Below are positions 47,651 to 53,775 of a stretch of DNA of 64,000 nt, in pieces. The notes below the pieces were generated by a model, which saw only the letters and a program-made list of their open reading frames with translations, was not told the DNA's origin and searched no databases. Each line of letters begins with the position of its first letter. The stretch's first letter is position 1. The stretch is taken from positions 7,482-71,481 of the forward strand of contig JAHDRK010000013.1 in the NCBI GenBank assembly GCA_018433345.1. Reading direction: 5' to 3'. Origin of the DNA: Syntrophobacterales bacterium. GTDB taxonomy: Bacteria > Desulfobacterota > Syntrophia > Syntrophales > UBA2210. Made by a program: the position numbers and the translations under genes.

Positions 47651-47872
47651 ATGTTCATGGCAATCGACATAAAGGCCCCCATGCCCGGCATCATAATGGA
47701 AATCCTCGTAGACGAAGGCTACACAGTCAGACGTGACGACGAGCTCCTGATCCTGGAAGCGATGAAGATGGAAAATCCAATCCGCTCACCGGAAGACGGC
47801 GTCGTGAAAACCATCCTCGTGAGAAAAAAGGACTTCGTCGATACCGACCAGATCATCATGTCCCTGGAGTAG
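47651..47872 (+). CDS. Stand-alone biotin carboxyl carrier domain protein
   Basis: 73 aa with biotinyl-lysine motif LEAMKMENPI. There is no N-terminal extension. Confidence 0.85.
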   Translation: MFMAIDIKAPMPGIIMEILVDEGYTVRRDDELLILEAMKMENPIRSPEDGVVKTILVRKKDFVDTDQIIMSLE

Positions 47873-48004: not shown

Positions 48005-49561
48005 ATGGCCTTTGAAAAACAGTTGGAAGAACTCAGGCAGAAAAAAGAGCGGGCGCTCATGATGGGAGGACCCGAAAAAATCAAAAAGCAGCACGACGCG
48101 GGCAAATACACGGCCCGCGAACGCATCGACAAGCTGCTCGATGGGGGAAGCTTCGATGAAATCGGGATGCTGAGCCATTCCGACATGCCGGGAATGGCTC
48201 ACAAGAGCCCTGCCGACGGCAAGGTGGGCGGCTACGGCCTTATAAACGGGCGTCCGGTAGGAGTCCTTGCCGCCGATTTCACAGTCCTTGGGGCCACATC
48301 GAGCCGCGTGGCGGGACGAAAGGAACATGACATCAGGAGCACGGCGGACCGCCACGGGTTTCCCGTCATATACCTGGGCGAGGCCGGAGGTGCCCGAATG
48401 CCGGATATAATGGGCTCGGCGGGGCTGGCCTCCTACGGTGGCGGCGGAAGGGACACCTTCCTGCAACTGATGAGCCGTGTCCGAAGAACTCCACTGGTAA
48501 CGGCGATCTTAGGCCTCTGCTACGGGGAACCGACATGGATGGCTTGCCTTGCCGATTTCGTGGTCATGGTCAAGGGTACGGCCATGGGTGTTTCGGGTCC
48601 TCGGATACTGTCAATCGCCTTGGGCGAAGAGATAACCGACGAGGAGCTCGGAGGCTGGGAGCTGCACGCAAAGGTGACGGGAATGACCGATCGGACGGCG
48701 GAAAACGAGGATGAGTGTTTCAAGATTATACGGGATTACCTGGATTACATGCCTTCGCACAATGAGGAAGTTCCTCCCGCAAAGGAGGTTCCGGAAGGAT
48801 CGGGTGAAAACATGTCAAAAATCCTCGACATCATCCCGGAAAAGCGAAACAGGGCCTACGACATGAACCGGGTGATCGAGTGCATTGTAGACCGGGAGAG
48901 TCTTTTCCCCATCAAGCCGCTGTTCGGCCAAACGGCCATCACTTCTCTGGCACGAGTGGACGGAAAGGTCGTGGGCATCGTGGCGAACCAGCCTCGCGTC
49001 AACTCGGGGGCCATGGATACCGATGGAATCGAAAAGGTCATCAGCTTTCTTTGTCTCTGCGACTCCTTCAACATTCCATTGATCTTTCTTGAAGACATTC
49101 CGGGATTTCTCGTGGGATGCGCCGCCGAGAGAAAACGGGTGGGCGCCCACGTCATGAATTTCATGAATGCCTTGGGGCTTGTGACTGTCCCAAAGATCAC
49201 TATCATTATGAGAAAGGCCTATGGAATGGCCTTCTGGAACATGTGCGGTTCCGGAAGCGGGGCCGATTCGATCGTCGCGTGGCCCACCGCCGAAATGAGT
49301 TTCGTCGATCCCGTCATCGCCGCCAACGTGGTCTACGGCGCCACTGCGGCGGCTACACCGGAGGAAAAGGAAGAACGGATAGCCAAGATGGCCGAGGGTA
49401 CCGACCCTTACGGAGCCGCTGGCCTACACTATATTCAAGATGTCATCGATCCGCGGGAAACGAGGAACCACATTATCAAGGTGCTGCGGCGGACTCGGGA
49501 TTTTTCAAAAACGAAGGGAATAGGCGAACACAAACTGGCCAACTGGCCTACGAAATTCTAA
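48005..49561 (+). CDS. Acyl-CoA carboxyltransferase (12S/PccB/MmdA-like), lineage 2
   Basis: 518 aa. GGPEKIKKQHDAGKYTARERIDKLLDGGSFDEIG, LGEAGGARMPD, ..IQDVIDPRETR. SD GAAGGAG. Confidence 0.88.
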   Translation: MAFEKQLEELRQKKERALMMGGPEKIKKQHDAGKYTARERIDKLLDGGSFDEIGMLSHSDMPGMAHKSPADGKVGGYGLINGRPVGVLAADFTVLGATSSRVAGRKEHDIRSTADRHGFPVIYLGEAGGARMPDIMGSAGLASYGGGGRDTFLQLMSRVRRTPLVTAILGLCYGEPTWMACLADFVVMVKGTAMGVSGPRILSIALGEEITDEELGGWELHAKVTGMTDRTAENEDECFKIIRDYLDYMPSHNEEVPPAKEVPEGSGENMSKILDIIPEKRNRAYDMNRVIECIVDRESLFPIKPLFGQTAITSLARVDGKVVGIVANQPRVNSGAMDTDGIEKVISFLCLCDSFNIPLIFLEDIPGFLVGCAAERKRVGAHVMNFMNALGLVTVPKITIIMRKAYGMAFWNMCGSGSGADSIVAWPTAEMSFVDPVIAANVVYGATAAATPEEKEERIAKMAEGTDPYGAAGLHYIQDVIDPRETRNHIIKVLRRTRDFSKTKGIGEHKLANWPTKF

Positions 49562-49582
49562 ATTCACCATCCTCGATGGTTT

Positions 49583-49617
49583 CCGCCGCTTCCCCCTCCA
49601 TAAACGGGAAGCGGCGG
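49583..49617. terminator. 12-bp GC hairpin between convergent genes (no U-tract)
   Basis: CCGCCGCTTCCC-N11-GGGAAGCGGCGG. Confidence 0.45.
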
Positions 49618-49627
49618 ACCTCGACTT

Positions 49628-50266
49628 TCACTGATTCCCTTCGGCCCGGCCCAGATCCCGGCGGGCGGACCAGAGCCTGTGAATCGCCGTGAGATTCGTG
49701 GAGACGGCCATGAACCATAGGATGAGGATCAAGGGGGCGTCCGGTGAAATGGAGGGGAGCCAAGCCTCGGCCACCGGTACCGCCAGCGAGGCGGCTGCAA
49801 GAAAAATAATGCGTTCCGGTCTTTGCATGAAACCAACCACCCTGATCGTACCCAGCGATTCGGCGCGAGCCTTTACGTAACTAACCATGTAGGAACCGGC
49901 GATGACGAAAAGGACCGCGTAAAAAGTTACATCGTTGCGGTAATGGACCAGGAGGCCGGCCAATATCAGAAAATCGGCCACCCGGTCGGCGCTCGAATCG
50001 AGCAATGCACCGAATCGGCTCGCGCTCCCGCTCAAGCGCGCCACCGTTCCATCGAGGGTATCGAGCAGACCTGAGAGGAGAAGGGCCAATCCGGCCCAGA
50101 AAAAGAACCCGCCGGCATAGAGAAAAAAAACCCCCAGCGACACCGCCAGGGAAAACAGCGTCAGCGCGTTGGGGGTGATAGGCCCATTGGCAAGCGGTCC
50201 GGCGAGTGTCTCCATGCATCTATAATAATATCTTACGATTCGTTCCCGCACGGTCGCATCCTCCAA
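49628..50266 (-). CDS. CDP-alcohol phosphatidyltransferase family protein
   Basis: DTLDGTVARLSGSASRFGALLDSSADRVAD is the full D-x2-DG-x2-AR..G-x3-D-x3-D motif. TTG start at 50266 with GGAG 6 nt upstream; ATG 50215 is an alternative. Confidence 0.85.
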   Translation of the reverse strand: MEDATVRERIVRYYYRCMETLAGPLANGPITPNALTLFSLAVSLGVFFLYAGGFFFWAGLALLLSGLLDTLDGTVARLSGSASRFGALLDSSADRVADFLILAGLLVHYRNDVTFYAVLFVIAGSYMVSYVKARAESLGTIRVVGFMQRPERIIFLAAASLAVPVAEAWLPSISPDAPLILILWFMAVSTNLTAIHRLWSARRDLGRAEGNQ

Positions 50267-51204
50267 AAGGTCTCCACGGCAAAACGCACCCTATCTTCCG
50301 GCGCTGCGTGTTTTTTCTTCAAATCTTCGACGACACGGAGTCGCGGCACCAGCCCTCCGCCGTTGGCGAGCTGGATGTTAAGGCCGGGTCTTGCATTCAG
50401 TTCGAGCAATACCGGACCGCGTTTTTTGTCCAGGACAATGTCGGCGCCGATATATCCAAGTCCGGTCATTTCGTAACAACATGATGCCAACCTCAGTATT
50501 TCCCGCCATCCGGGAACGCGGACCAGATCGAAGGCCTTGTTGGTGTCGGGATGCCTTTCAATGGGGCGCGAGTACTGAACGGCGTTTATGATTTTCCCAT
50601 CCGATATGTCGAGACCCACTCCGACCGCGCCCTGGTGGAGATTGGCCTTGCCGTCCGAAACGCGTGTTGTAAGGCGGAGCATGGCCATGACAGGATAACC
50701 TTGAAAGACTATTATTCTAATGTCGGGGACACCCTCCCAAGAATAATCCGCAAAGATATCGTCACAGTGGATCAATTCTTCCACGATTGCGGCATCGGGC
50801 GTGCCTGCCAGGGAATACAGACCTCCCAGTATGTTGGACACGTGTCGCTTGAGATCATTGAGCGTAATCGCCGCCCCAGAGGATTTTATGTAGGCATTCG
50901 GACCGCTTTCCTTGATTATAAGTATTCCCTTTCCCCCCGATCCCCGCGCAGGTTTTACGGCGAATCCTTCCAGGTTCTCCAGGAGGCCCGCGAGATCACG
51001 GACCCTGTGCTGTTCCCGCATAGAAAAATAAAGCTCGGGAACCGGAATGCCGTATTTCCGGGCAAGCACCTTGGTCTTGAGCTTGTCATCGACGAGGGGA
51101 TAGAGGGAACGAGGGTTGTAACGGGCGATGAATTCTATGTTTCGTCGATTCATGCCTAGGATTCCAAGTTTCCTCAACTGTCCAAGCCCGATGAATCTCG
51201 TCAT
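50233..51204 (-). CDS. RimK-related ATP-grasp ligase (alpha-L-glutamate ligase-like protein)
   Basis: GILGMNRRNIEFIARYNPR, VKPARGSGGKGILII, GADIVLDKKRGPVLLELNARPGL; 323 aa. Confidence 0.85.
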   Translation of the reverse strand: MTRFIGLGQLRKLGILGMNRRNIEFIARYNPRSLYPLVDDKLKTKVLARKYGIPVPELYFSMREQHRVRDLAGLLENLEGFAVKPARGSGGKGILIIKESGPNAYIKSSGAAITLNDLKRHVSNILGGLYSLAGTPDAAIVEELIHCDDIFADYSWEGVPDIRIIVFQGYPVMAMLRLTTRVSDGKANLHQGAVGVGLDISDGKIINAVQYSRPIERHPDTNKAFDLVRVPGWREILRLASCCYEMTGLGYIGADIVLDKKRGPVLLELNARPGLNIQLANGGGLVPRLRVVEDLKKKHAAPEDRVRFAVETFWRMRPCGNES

Positions 51205-52718
51205 GACCGGGATATCCTACGCAGGCTGCTGAATCTCCTCAATTCAAACAATCTGTATCCTGTGTAATTCCCCATAAGCATAATCAGGGCGACGACAATC
51301 AAATTTATCTCGGGAAAATGAAAGGTCAGATGTTGCGTCACCCTCCACTGCATCAACAGGTAGGCCAGCACTGCGACCAAGAGACTCCCCGCCCCCTGCA
51401 CGAACACCTCCCAGGGTCCCTCGTCCTCCCACAGGATAGACATGCGCTCGATGGTCCAAGCAATGATGATGATAGGGAAAAAGGTGACTGTCATCCCCGT
51501 GTTGAACCCCAGCTGATAGCCAAAGAGACTGAAAAAAATCACTATAAAAACGACGATTACCACAATGGTGGAAATGCGGGCAACTAACAAAAGGTTCAGG
51601 TTGGACAGATAGCCACGCAGAAGCAAACCGAAAGAAACGATCGCTATGAAACTCACCAGACCGGGCAATAGTGTGGTTTGGAGAAATGAAAGCGCAATGA
51701 GTATGGGCATGAAAGTTCCGGATGTTTTTACTCCCACGATTATTCTCATAAAAACCAGTACCAGCGCCCCAACGGGCAAAAGAAGCAGTATCCGCAAAAG
51801 GTTCTGCTCTTCCACTGGGAGTTTGTGCACCCCGAGCAGCGCGAATCCCGAATCCTTCATGGTTTCCTGCGCCAACTGTATGGTCGAAATACTCCGTTGA
51901 AGCATGGCGAACCGCGTTTGTGAACTTTCGCCTCCGCTCACGTCGAGAAGGGATTGTCCTTCCAGGTTCCACAGGAAAAAATTCTCTGGAATCCCCTGGT
52001 ATCCGGTTACGGGATTGAACAACACCCATCCGCCATTCGTGTATACCTCTATCATCTCCCGTAACTGTTGGTTCCGACGTCCGTCTTCCAGGTAAAGACC
52101 GGCCACTATCCTGGTCGGGATACGAGCGTAATTAAGCAATTTTACAAGTAACGGCACAAGCGGGGTCTCCGCGAGCAGCAGCGCGGCGTTTTGGTTGGCC
52201 GACGGTTCCGCGAGCAGTTTTATCAATTCACGGGTCATGCTTTCCGGCGTACTGGACATCGAATGGGCTGCGGCCAACAGTTGGTTTGCGGCGAGCGCCT
52301 CGGGTTCATTCCAATAAACGTCAAATAATTGTGGAGGAGGATCATCCCTTTTTTGGCGGGGGATTGTTTGGGGGGCAACCTCCACTTTGTAATAAAGTGT
52401 TTGGGGACCCTCGGCGTTTCGTATCGTCCATTCTCCCCGCCTGTTACCGTTTTCGTTGATAACGGAAAAGCCGTAGCCTGGAGACGCCGTTTGTTCCGAC
52501 AGGATGACAAAGCCCGGGGGGTCATCGGGGATGTCCAGGGTCACCGTCACCGTCCCTCCATGCGCGACGAAATCGACGCGGGCCTCTATCAGCCAGACCG
52601 TCGTCTGATCTCCCGGAAGAAGGGGGATGCCAGTCTGATTGTGGCGAGCCCAAAGAGTCGCCAGGCCTGTCACGATGAGGCACAGTACAATAATATGAAA
52701 AAATATTCGAGAGGTCAT
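51201..52718 (-). CDS. Membrane protein: extracytoplasmic (inactive transglutaminase-like) domain fused to a ~7-TM C-terminal module
   Basis: An N-terminal TM helix (FFHIIVLCLIVTGLATLWA), a soluble region of about 280 aa, then roughly 7 hydrophobic helices in residues ~300-490. ATGA overlap with the ATP-grasp gene. Confidence 0.75.
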   Translation of the reverse strand: MTSRIFFHIIVLCLIVTGLATLWARHNQTGIPLLPGDQTTVWLIEARVDFVAHGGTVTVTLDIPDDPPGFVILSEQTASPGYGFSVINENGNRRGEWTIRNAEGPQTLYYKVEVAPQTIPRQKRDDPPPQLFDVYWNEPEALAANQLLAAAHSMSSTPESMTRELIKLLAEPSANQNAALLLAETPLVPLLVKLLNYARIPTRIVAGLYLEDGRRNQQLREMIEVYTNGGWVLFNPVTGYQGIPENFFLWNLEGQSLLDVSGGESSQTRFAMLQRSISTIQLAQETMKDSGFALLGVHKLPVEEQNLLRILLLLPVGALVLVFMRIIVGVKTSGTFMPILIALSFLQTTLLPGLVSFIAIVSFGLLLRGYLSNLNLLLVARISTIVVIVVFIVIFFSLFGYQLGFNTGMTVTFFPIIIIAWTIERMSILWEDEGPWEVFVQGAGSLLVAVLAYLLMQWRVTQHLTFHFPEINLIVVALIMLMGNYTGYRLFELRRFSSLRRISRS

Positions 52719-53560
52719 TACGGCCTTGTGATGTCGCCCGGAGGTTCCGGAGGAAGCCCGGGCGGCGCTATGTATGTCTCGCTCACGTCCACCACCATGA
52801 CATCCTTGAGTACATTGCGACCGATCAAGACGGGATGCTCCATGTGACTGCGGTCGGAGAGCGTAAACTGGGCGATTTGATTGATCCCGCCGACGGTCAC
52901 ACTCAGCTCAACCACCGGGCGCCGATCAACCTCTTTCGACAGGGCTTGTATGATCTTCGCGCTGCGCACCAAGGGCCGTTCCAAGGTGTATTCTTCGCTA
53001 TTCTCAGGGTTTACAATAGTAAAGCGAATCCACTCATCTCCGTTTCGCTCGAATTTCTGAATATTGTGCGCATTCAGCGAAGATGTCACAGCACCTGTGT
53101 CAATCCTGGCAGGAAGTATTTTCCCGGGAGGCGTGATGAAAACTTTTTCCACGGCCCCCACTACCTGTTTGTCTCTCAACCTAGCTCCGGTGGATTTTCC
53201 AGCGGATTTTCCAGTGGATTTTCCGACGGCCTCCCGGCGCTCGCTTTTAACTGCCTCCCGCTCGCGAAGGCGCATCGCATGCACGACTTTTTCTATTTCA
53301 TCTAGACGCCCTTCCAGTTGTTCCTGCCTGCAAGAGATATCCCTCAACTGTAGAAACATGGCTTGAGAATAATCCGCCATCGCCTGGTTCATAATCACTT
53401 GCTCCCGTGCCATCACCCGTATCCATTCGGCCTGTTCTTGCGTGTTTTTCTCAATTTCACGGAGTTCCGCCTCTTTGATGAGCAACGAGTAGTTGGCGCA
53501 CCCCACGAAAAAAAAGATGAATGCTGAAAATAAGATATAGAGGAATACATCTCTTTTCAC
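52718..53560 (-). CDS. Membrane-anchored coiled-coil protein with a C-terminal retropepsin-like domain (family usually annotated 'putative ATP-dependent zinc protease')
   Basis: N-terminal anchor VFLYILFSAFIFFFVGC, a heptad-rich segment, a (GKS[TA])3 linker, then ARIDTGAVTSSL ... PVLIGRNVL. TAATG overlap with the next gene. Confidence 0.75.
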   Translation of the reverse strand: MKRDVFLYILFSAFIFFFVGCANYSLLIKEAELREIEKNTQEQAEWIRVMAREQVIMNQAMADYSQAMFLQLRDISCRQEQLEGRLDEIEKVVHAMRLREREAVKSERREAVGKSTGKSAGKSTGARLRDKQVVGAVEKVFITPPGKILPARIDTGAVTSSLNAHNIQKFERNGDEWIRFTIVNPENSEEYTLERPLVRSAKIIQALSKEVDRRPVVELSVTVGGINQIAQFTLSDRSHMEHPVLIGRNVLKDVMVVDVSETYIAPPGLPPEPPGDITRP

Positions 53561-53775
53561 GACAAACTCCTATACTAAACCATACGGCAGGTATCAGCCA
53601 AGCAACGTTCTTCCTGGGAACCAAGAACAGGGGATTGGAATCCCGATCTGCGATTCTCCGACTCTGACGCCCCGTTACCATGGAATGTCATGTATCCTGC
53701 GTACGCCATTATCAATAACCCGAGGGAATCGTCAAGTAGTAAGGACCTGTGATATACGTTTTTTTTCACCGCTGT

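Follow-up and report, generated by a model that had tools for sequence, protein, structure and literature searches.

We examined four adjacent minus-strand genes at 49628–53560 in a 64-kb window of contig JAHDRK010000013.1 from a Syntrophobacterales bacterium (Desulfobacterota). Coordinates refer to this window, except those quoted with an L-number, which denotes a genomic stretch used for comparison. The initial annotation of this DNA had described four overlapping open reading frames (ORFs), and the sequence bears this out: in the ORF list they occupy 52718–53560, 51201–52718, 50233–51204 and 49628–50266 and encode proteins of 280, 505, 323 and 212 amino acids (genes 1 to 4, respectively). 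Gene 1 starts with GTG, having GGAG 6 nt upstream, and gene 4, as listed, starts with the TTG at 50266. The junction of genes 1 and 2 is TAATG (52720–52716) and that of genes 2 and 3 is ATGA (51204–51201). All the motifs that had been quoted for these proteins, ARIDTGAVTSSL, PVLIGRNVL, VKPARGSGGKGILII, LELNARPGL and DGTVARLSGSASRFGALLDSSAD, were found in the translations of the four ORFs, and the profile searches that the annotation had proposed matched the expected genes throughout (PF05618, PF14400/PF14402, PF14397 and PF01066). As described below, we consider it very probable that the region 50233–53560 is a homologue of the rloABC operon, joined here to an unrelated resident lipid gene (gene 4).

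The rloABC operon was defined in Pseudomonas aeruginosa (Lormand et al., mBio 2025; PMC12239564). The RloA proteins of that organism, for which crystal structures exist, are retropepsin-like aspartic peptidases that are secreted and that cut runs of at least eight glutamates in vitro (PMC12239564). A triple rloA mutant does not grow in hypo-osmotic medium and shows biofilm, antibiotic and cell-shape defects, and these defects are suppressed by deletion of either rloB, encoding an inactive transglutaminase with seven transmembrane helices (7TM), or rloC, encoding an ATP-grasp protein; rimB of Pseudomonas showed no genetic interaction with the rloA genes (PMC12239564). In Shewanella, disruption of hm2192 resulted in overproduction of membrane vesicles (PMC12096838). 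The earlier statement that neither a substrate nor a phenotype had been established for this group of genes is therefore superseded by the in vitro polyglutamate cleavage, the phenotypes and the epistasis reported in PMC12239564.

Gene 1 (52718–53560, minus strand) is an rloA homologue, encoding a lipoprotein-type retropepsin-like aspartic endopeptidase. Its PF05618 domain (E 2.4e-38) spans residues 133–266 (52763–53164), with the catalytic DTG at 53093–53101. This domain could be aligned with the solved RloA structures 9g58 and 9g59 (E ~2e-18) and with 2pma, where DTGA pairs with DTGA and LIGRN with the h-h-G motif, and the retropepsin-like nature proposed for gene 1 is thus confirmed. We used the sequence alignment to the solved structures here instead of the AlphaFold2 monomer model, which was of low confidence in the protease domain. 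Adding 20 to the chain index of 9g58 reproduced all the residue numbers given for Pseudomonas RloA in PMC12239564. By this mapping, the symmetric polyglutamate-contact residues of Pseudomonas RloA, K46, R92, R114 and R137 (PMC12239564), correspond to R152, R199, R214 and R237 of the window RloA, and these positions are invariant or at least 90% conserved among the 37 homologues of our RloA alignment.

Gene 2 (51201–52718, minus strand) is an rloB homologue, in which an N-terminal transmembrane (TM) helix is followed by a periplasmic domain that is transglutaminase-like but apparently dead, and then by a 7TM block at the C-terminus. It matched PF14400 (E 7e-54) and PF14402 (E 3e-100), as expected from its initial description as an inactive-transglutaminase 7TM protein. 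In the AlphaFold2 model (predicted local distance difference test score, pLDDT, 77), the periplasmic domain matched 3isr, a transglutaminase-like putative cysteine protease, by Foldseek (E 7e-9); for the 7TM block Foldseek gave no solved relative, the transporter matches having a probability of at most 0.12. The catalytic cysteine expected in active transglutaminases and papain-like Cys-His-Asp enzymes is missing from RloB. The only cysteine among its 505 residues, C13, lies within TM1, and no cysteine is invariant in an alignment of 25 RloB sequences. Because the periplasmic fold is transglutaminase-like and there is no cysteine outside TM1, RloB is predicted to be a transglutaminase fold devoid of the catalytic nucleophile, matching the name of the family. 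Among the names given to RloB homologues in public annotations are 'gonadoliberin III', evidently a propagated mis-annotation, and 'UUP1 family membrane protein'.

Gene 3 (50233–51204, minus strand) is an rloC homologue encoding a cytoplasmic RimK-related ATP-grasp ligase. It scored 425.6 bits against TIGR02291 (cutoff 314.2) and matched PF14397 with an E value of 1.6e-91, so that its placement in the alpha-L-glutamate-ligase-like branch of RimK stands. Its score against the RimK family itself, TIGR00768, was 46.6 bits (cutoff 143.4). We also observed that the homology of rloC to its relatives stops at ~50257–50266, and therefore the last ~8–11 codons, which read into gene 4, are a tail specific to this lineage.

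The three genes are adjacent and co-directional in the order protease, inactive-transglutaminase 7TM protein and ATP-grasp ligase. In this order, in the content of families (PF05618, PF14400/PF14402 and TIGR02291), in the DTG, in the four basic contact residues and in the tight coupling of the genes, the locus matches rloABC of P. aeruginosa and P. fluorescens (PMC12239564). It differs in its host, which belongs to Desulfobacterota and not to Gammaproteobacteria, in the 3′ end of rloC, which is overlapped by gene 4, and in RloA. The Pseudomonas RloA consists of a signal peptide and the domain, and the NCBIfam models are 159–178 positions long, whereas the window RloA has an additional helical stalk of ~80 residues and a repeat linker. 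NCBIfam already holds models for RloA1, RloA2, RloA3, RimB and RloB, the names used there originating from PMC12239564, and genes 1 and 2 match these models best, although below the cutoffs. The best match of gene 1 was RloA3, with 117 bits (cutoff 210), and its match to the RimB model had an E value of 1.2e-17; gene 2 scored 311 bits against NF052267, the RloB model (cutoff 900). These are equivalog or exception models, some of them Pseudomonas-named, and we take the sub-cutoff scores to indicate distant homologues and not a separate family.

The RimK/RimB pair of the RimABK system, which carries out polyglutamylation of ribosomal protein S6, likewise combines an ATP-grasp ligase with a polyglutamate-cutting retropepsin-like endopeptidase, and the proteases are homologous. 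RimB, however, is cytoplasmic, without a signal peptide, and the system has no membrane protein of the RloB type. In the window, the ligase is below the TIGR00768 cutoff, the protease has a signal peptide and the rloB gene lies in between, and hence this locus is not of the RimK/RimB type.

Gene 4 (49628–50251 on the minus strand from its likelier start, see below) encodes a cytidine diphosphate (CDP)-alcohol phosphatidyltransferase resembling the synthases of phosphatidylinositol phosphate (PIP) and archaetidylinositol phosphate (AIP). It is a multi-TM protein that matched PF01066 (E 6.7e-17), and it carries the complete D(x2)DG(x2)AR(x7-12)G(x3)D(x3)D motif that had been ascribed to it, in the form LDTLDGTVARLSGSASRFGALLDSSADRVAD. 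Its best NCBIfam matches were NF040950, AIP synthase (155.5 bits against a cutoff of 180), and NF045883, PIP synthase (115.4 bits against a cutoff of 170). Among solved structures, its best relatives are PIP synthases from mycobacteria and Renibacterium (6h53, 6wm5 and 5d92). Gene 4 thus shares the full DGxxAR...GxxxDxxxD motif with mycobacterial PgsA1/PIPS, Renibacterium PIPS and archaeal AIP synthase, its best PDB and NCBIfam matches, but it is below both equivalog cutoffs and comes from a small uncharacterised clade. Its SYxKARAE and RPER segments also align with the PIP synthases, in which they presumably line the inositol-phosphate pocket. A word-indexed search gave 278 homologues, the small clade comprising Desulfobacterota, Syntrophales and Chloroflexota (P0121–P0172).

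One of these homologues lies ~1 kb from an inositol-1-phosphate synthase gene, an IS1595 transposase gene being between them (L091 3914–6606). Given this neighbour together with the NCBIfam and PDB matches, the most likely activity of gene 4 is the formation of PIP from CDP-diacylglycerol and inositol-1-phosphate, which would be a housekeeping lipid step. Within the 64-kb window, which is only a part of the genome, we found no inositol-1-phosphate synthase gene, and a literature search for inositol lipids in Desulfobacterota gave nothing relevant. The L091 neighbourhood, as such, hints at inositol phospholipids in these anaerobes.

The initial annotation had asked how often a phosphatidyltransferase adjoins the triad, and this survey gave a clear answer. 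An RloB-alignment scan with one genome per species provided 80 loci, or 83 when the other loci that we examined are included, of ~4,300 RloB homologues found. The hosts of the 80 loci are Gammaproteobacteria, Desulfuromonadales, Desulfobacterales and one Spirochaetaceae assembly. The order rloA-rloB-rloC was observed in all 80 species loci where the contig allows it to be read, and also in the three nearest relatives, so the claim that genes 1 to 3 recur as a triad holds well. Within 7 kb of the triad, no CDP-alcohol transferase was encountered in any of the 83 other loci, even at a hidden Markov model (HMM) threshold of E<=1 combined with a motif search, and the phosphatidyltransferase is consequently not a conserved neighbour of the triad.

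The three closest RloB relatives (L092–L094) are 77%, 74% and 69% identical, the one at 69% coming from Desulfurivibrio alkaliphilus of the order Desulfobulbales. Each has the triad in a different, non-syntenic context, and in none of these is there a CDP-alcohol transferase. Conversely, none of the gene 4 homologues at 69%, 58% and 55% identity adjoins rloABC. The homologue at 69% resides in L087, which is collinear with the window at 66–76% nucleotide identity through rdgC, NAD kinase, recN, GNAT and mltA, and then through carboxyltransferase and CoA-transferase genes. In L087, mltA is followed directly by the gene 4 orthologue, and the window block 50199–53772, which contains rloABC, is absent.

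The 83 loci, the RloB relatives, the gene 4 homologues and the L087 synteny all agree, and for this reason we regard gene 4 as a resident gene. By these comparisons, the triad appears to travel as a three-gene cassette, which here abuts the resident recN-GNAT-mltA-gene 4 backbone; gene 4 is not a conserved rlo partner, and nothing indicates that it has a common function with rlo. Irrespective of whether rloABC was inserted here or lost in L087, gene 4 exists and persists without it. The window rloABC is therefore a copy of an already described operon, carried by an uncultured, sulfur-cycling bacterium of the deltaproteobacterial type, in a new host group and with a lineage-specific operon fusion.

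In the same comparison, the window segment 47521–49653 (L087 6638–6676) has an extra carboxyltransferase gene (48005–49561) and a biotinyl-carrier gene (47651–47872), both missing from L087. The GNAT gene upstream of rloABC in L094 had raised the possibility of the same locus; we rejected this, as the L094 GNAT does not match that of the window.

We then considered how gene 4 is expressed. Its start had been assigned to the TTG at 50266, 34 nt inside the ATP-grasp gene. The GTG at 50251 is more likely to be the start, because it has GGAGG 8 nt upstream, it is chosen by the gene caller in six public contigs of the same organism, which makes the protein 207 amino acids long, and it aligns with Met15 of the closest homologue (MRERVVKIYY). 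From this GTG, gene 4 overlaps rloC by 19 nt. The four-gene layout is identical in these six metagenome contigs. Inside the triad, stop/start overlaps of 4 nt recur in the relatives L092, L093 and L094, and the tight packing of the triad is therefore a family trait and not a matter of chance.

A candidate sigma-70-like promoter, TTGACG-16-GATAAT, lies at 53708–53735 on the minus strand, where mltA and rloA are 215 nt apart; it is a match to the consensus only (10/12). The sole internal candidate, with 9/12 matches, is inside rloC, ~460 nt upstream of gene 4. To see whether the operon is now driven by an ancestral gene 4 promoter, we compared the mltA-rloA gap with the mltA-gene 4 gap of L087, but there was no convincing similarity. 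Since gene 4 has no intergenic space upstream, all four genes are probably co-transcribed in the window organism, as the initial annotation had supposed, with gene 4 probably transcribed from the rlo promoter. This co-transcription, however, is a consequence of the rloC/gene 4 junction and not evidence for a common function.

Gene 4 and the carboxyltransferase gene converge, and between their stop codons lies an inverted repeat (49582–49618), 13 bp without a mismatch around a loop of 11 nt, which is probably a bidirectional transcript end. The hairpin has no T-run, and the terminator scan therefore made no call there. Another terminator-like site, at 50131–50152, was rejected: it is within the gene 4 coding sequence, where the T-run specifies FFL, a part of a TM helix conserved in the homologue.

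The N-terminus of gene 1 had been described as a hydrophobic anchor followed by a coiled-coil-like stretch. A hydrophobic segment is indeed present, but we read MKRDVFLYILFSAFIFFFVG|C as a lipoprotein-type signal peptide (53498–53560, minus strand) with the lipobox FVG|C and Cys21 as the lipobox cysteine, which is at least 90% conserved in the RloA alignment. The coiled-coil-like stretch, in turn, is predicted by AlphaFold2 to be a single long alpha-helix with pLDDT >90 (residues 30–111; 53228–53473, minus strand), which would form a stalk from the lipid anchor to the protease domain. This helix is not special to the locus, as a Q/E-rich spacer equivalent to it is present in the homologues.

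The stretch that follows the helix is a disordered linker in the model. Here a 12-nt tandem repeat (53186–53229, minus strand; repeat core 53192–53224) encodes (GKS[TA])3. The repeat is an insertion relative to all the 36 other homologues in the alignment. It is lineage-specific and its length differs between strains; on public contigs of the same organism, the RloA variants are 276, 280 and 281 amino acids long.

The anchored coiled-coil protease had been put forward as an undescribed form. We surveyed the N-termini of rloA in L007–L086 and L092–L094, and observed that a lipoprotein with a spacer is the normal form of the rloB-linked rloA. Among the 82 readable N-termini, 73 passed a strict test for a hydrophobic run plus lipobox, and in the other nine a lipobox was recognised by eye; the median spacer from the cysteine to the domain is 91 residues. 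The best 120 database homologues of RloA are all 209–347 amino acids long. Outside Pseudomonas, a lipoprotein with a long helical spacer is thus almost the rule for the RloA encoded in the operon. The Pseudomonas rlo paper (PMC12239564) makes no mention of lipoproteins or coiled coils.

Two Endozoicomonas loci (L065 2718–3938 and L071 5823–6989) have an rloA encoding a lipoprotein with two tandem PF05618 domains. A DTGA is present in each of these domains, and in place of a long helix there is a short, low-complexity spacer. Such a protein is a single-chain pseudo-dimer, reminiscent of pepsins, which are thought to derive from duplication.

Retropepsins are obligate homodimers, with one catalytic Asp contributed by each subunit and flaps over the active site. 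The window RloA has the corresponding motif and is homologous to proteins whose crystal structures are dimeric. Because of this requirement for a dimer, we infer that the helical stalk tethers two RloA subunits and aids their pairing, and that Endozoicomonas may have reached the same end via duplication. The outer-membrane lipoproteins Lpp, LpoA and LpoB similarly reach across the periplasm on a helix or linker. Their likeness to the window RloA, a domain positioned by a lipid anchor and a long helix or linker, is an analogy and does not imply homology.

From these features and the published genetics, a mechanism can be drawn for the window operon. RloC would be a cytoplasmic ATP-grasp ligase that builds an acidic, glutamate-rich peptide or peptide tail. 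RloB, in the inner membrane, may pass this product on or present it at the periplasmic face. In RloA, a lipid-anchored endopeptidase on its ~80-residue stalk, the catalytic Asp is retained along with the basic residues of the polyglutamate-binding channel, and this enzyme would cleave the RloC/RloB product and so prevent a harmful accumulation. The order of these steps follows from the observation that in P. aeruginosa the loss of RloA is harmful only as long as rloB and rloC are present. As a whole, the scheme draws on the epistasis seen in Pseudomonas, on the specificity measured in vitro and on the basic channel conserved here. We put it forward tentatively, as a sequence of events that has somewhat less than an even chance of being correct in all its steps. 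We infer the nature of the RloC product, the role of RloB, the membrane in which RloA is anchored and the co-transcription of the genes. Considered together, an rloABC operon and a separate resident gene 4, with the Rlo proteins working in the proposed manner, are the explanation that we favour and regard as likely.

Several points weigh against this explanation. The polyglutamate cleavage, the phenotypes and the epistasis are results of others in Pseudomonas and are carried over to the window operon by analogy. RloA and RloB are below the NCBIfam cutoffs, so that their equivalence to the Pseudomonas proteins is an assumption. In addition, the Pseudomonas RloA is soluble in the periplasm and has a disulfide staple, whereas the window RloA is a lipoprotein whose protease domain (52763–53164) contains no cysteine. 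The syntenic argument depends on one relative without rloABC, and an insertion here and a loss there fit it equally. Finally, the 19-nt overlap ties the expression of gene 4 to that of rloC, and this tie could have gained a regulatory meaning.

Of the other explanations, the one that survives best, though we think it unlikely, assigns the Rlo proteins to the cell wall or envelope and not to free polyglutamate: the target modified by RloB and RloC would be a component of the wall or envelope, for instance an envelope protein or the stem peptide of peptidoglycan, and RloA would regulate peptidoglycan synthases or hydrolases. Consistent with such a role, the mutants of Pseudomonas are defective in cell shape and sensitive to cell-wall antibiotics, and in Vibrio the orthologues are members of the VxrAB cell-wall damage regulon (PMC12239564); in the window, mltA is directly upstream of the operon. 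The adjacency of mltA, however, is uninformative, as this gene is part of the resident backbone in L087 and was not found within 7 kb of any of the 80 other rloABC loci. The conserved basic residues of the polyglutamate-binding channel also argue against this role, and no genome-encoded acidic target in the periplasm was found in Pseudomonas (PMC12239564).

It is somewhat less probable still that the four-gene arrangement is ancestral, L087 having lost rloABC by deletion with no insertion in the window lineage. We had only one syntenic comparator. We found no direct or inverted repeats flanking rloABC and no mobile-element genes, and the GC profile shows no clear break between the rloABC block and its flanks; these observations are compatible with an ancestral arrangement. 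Against it, the three closest rloABC relatives occupy three non-syntenic contexts, which shows that the triad relocates as a unit, and the RloC tail reading into gene 4 is lineage-specific. Even if this history were true, gene 4 survives without the triad in L087 and is thus independent of rlo.

The proposal of the initial annotation was that all four genes form one membrane machine for an amino-acid- or peptide-decorated lipid or envelope molecule. In such a machine, the phosphatidyltransferase would supply or modify a lipid head group, RloC would decorate it with amino acids and RloA would trim it. The 19-nt overlap without an upstream intergenic region, the identical layout in the six contigs and the fact that the physiological Rlo substrate is still unknown (PMC12239564) could be cited in its favour. 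The six contigs, however, represent one species and are not independent. The proposal found no comparative support, as the transferase is missing within 7 kb in all 83 loci, including those of the nearest RloB relatives, the gene 4 orthologue is kept in the same backbone without rloABC, and its distant homologues also stand apart from the triad. The neighbourhood survey has already largely refuted it, and we consider it very improbable. Equally slight are the chances that the fusion has been co-opted, such that inositol-phospholipid synthesis is translationally coupled to Rlo because an inositol lipid serves as the base or the anchor for what RloB and RloC produce, although, if this were true, a lipid-linked acidic peptide would be the long-sought Rlo substrate.

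Returning to our favoured explanation, a published operon next to a resident lipid gene, intact rloABC is present in anaerobic Desulfobacterota of the orders Desulfobulbales, Desulfuromonadales and Desulfobacterales. A complete triad was also observed on a contig binned as Spirochaetaceae (L068), far from hosts of the Proteobacteria type, where either horizontal transfer or a binning error is possible.

The main value of this analysis is corrective: what looked like a new lipid-peptide machine of four genes is rloABC, an operon already published, beside an unrelated resident gene. It extends the published account by the hosts labelled Desulfobacterota and Spirochaetaceae, by the lipoprotein-stalk form of RloA, which is near-universal outside Pseudomonas, and by the tandem-domain variant of Endozoicomonas. 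Tethering and enforced dimerisation may thus be part of how the Rlo system works, and they may serve as a guide to the chemistry of RloB and RloC.

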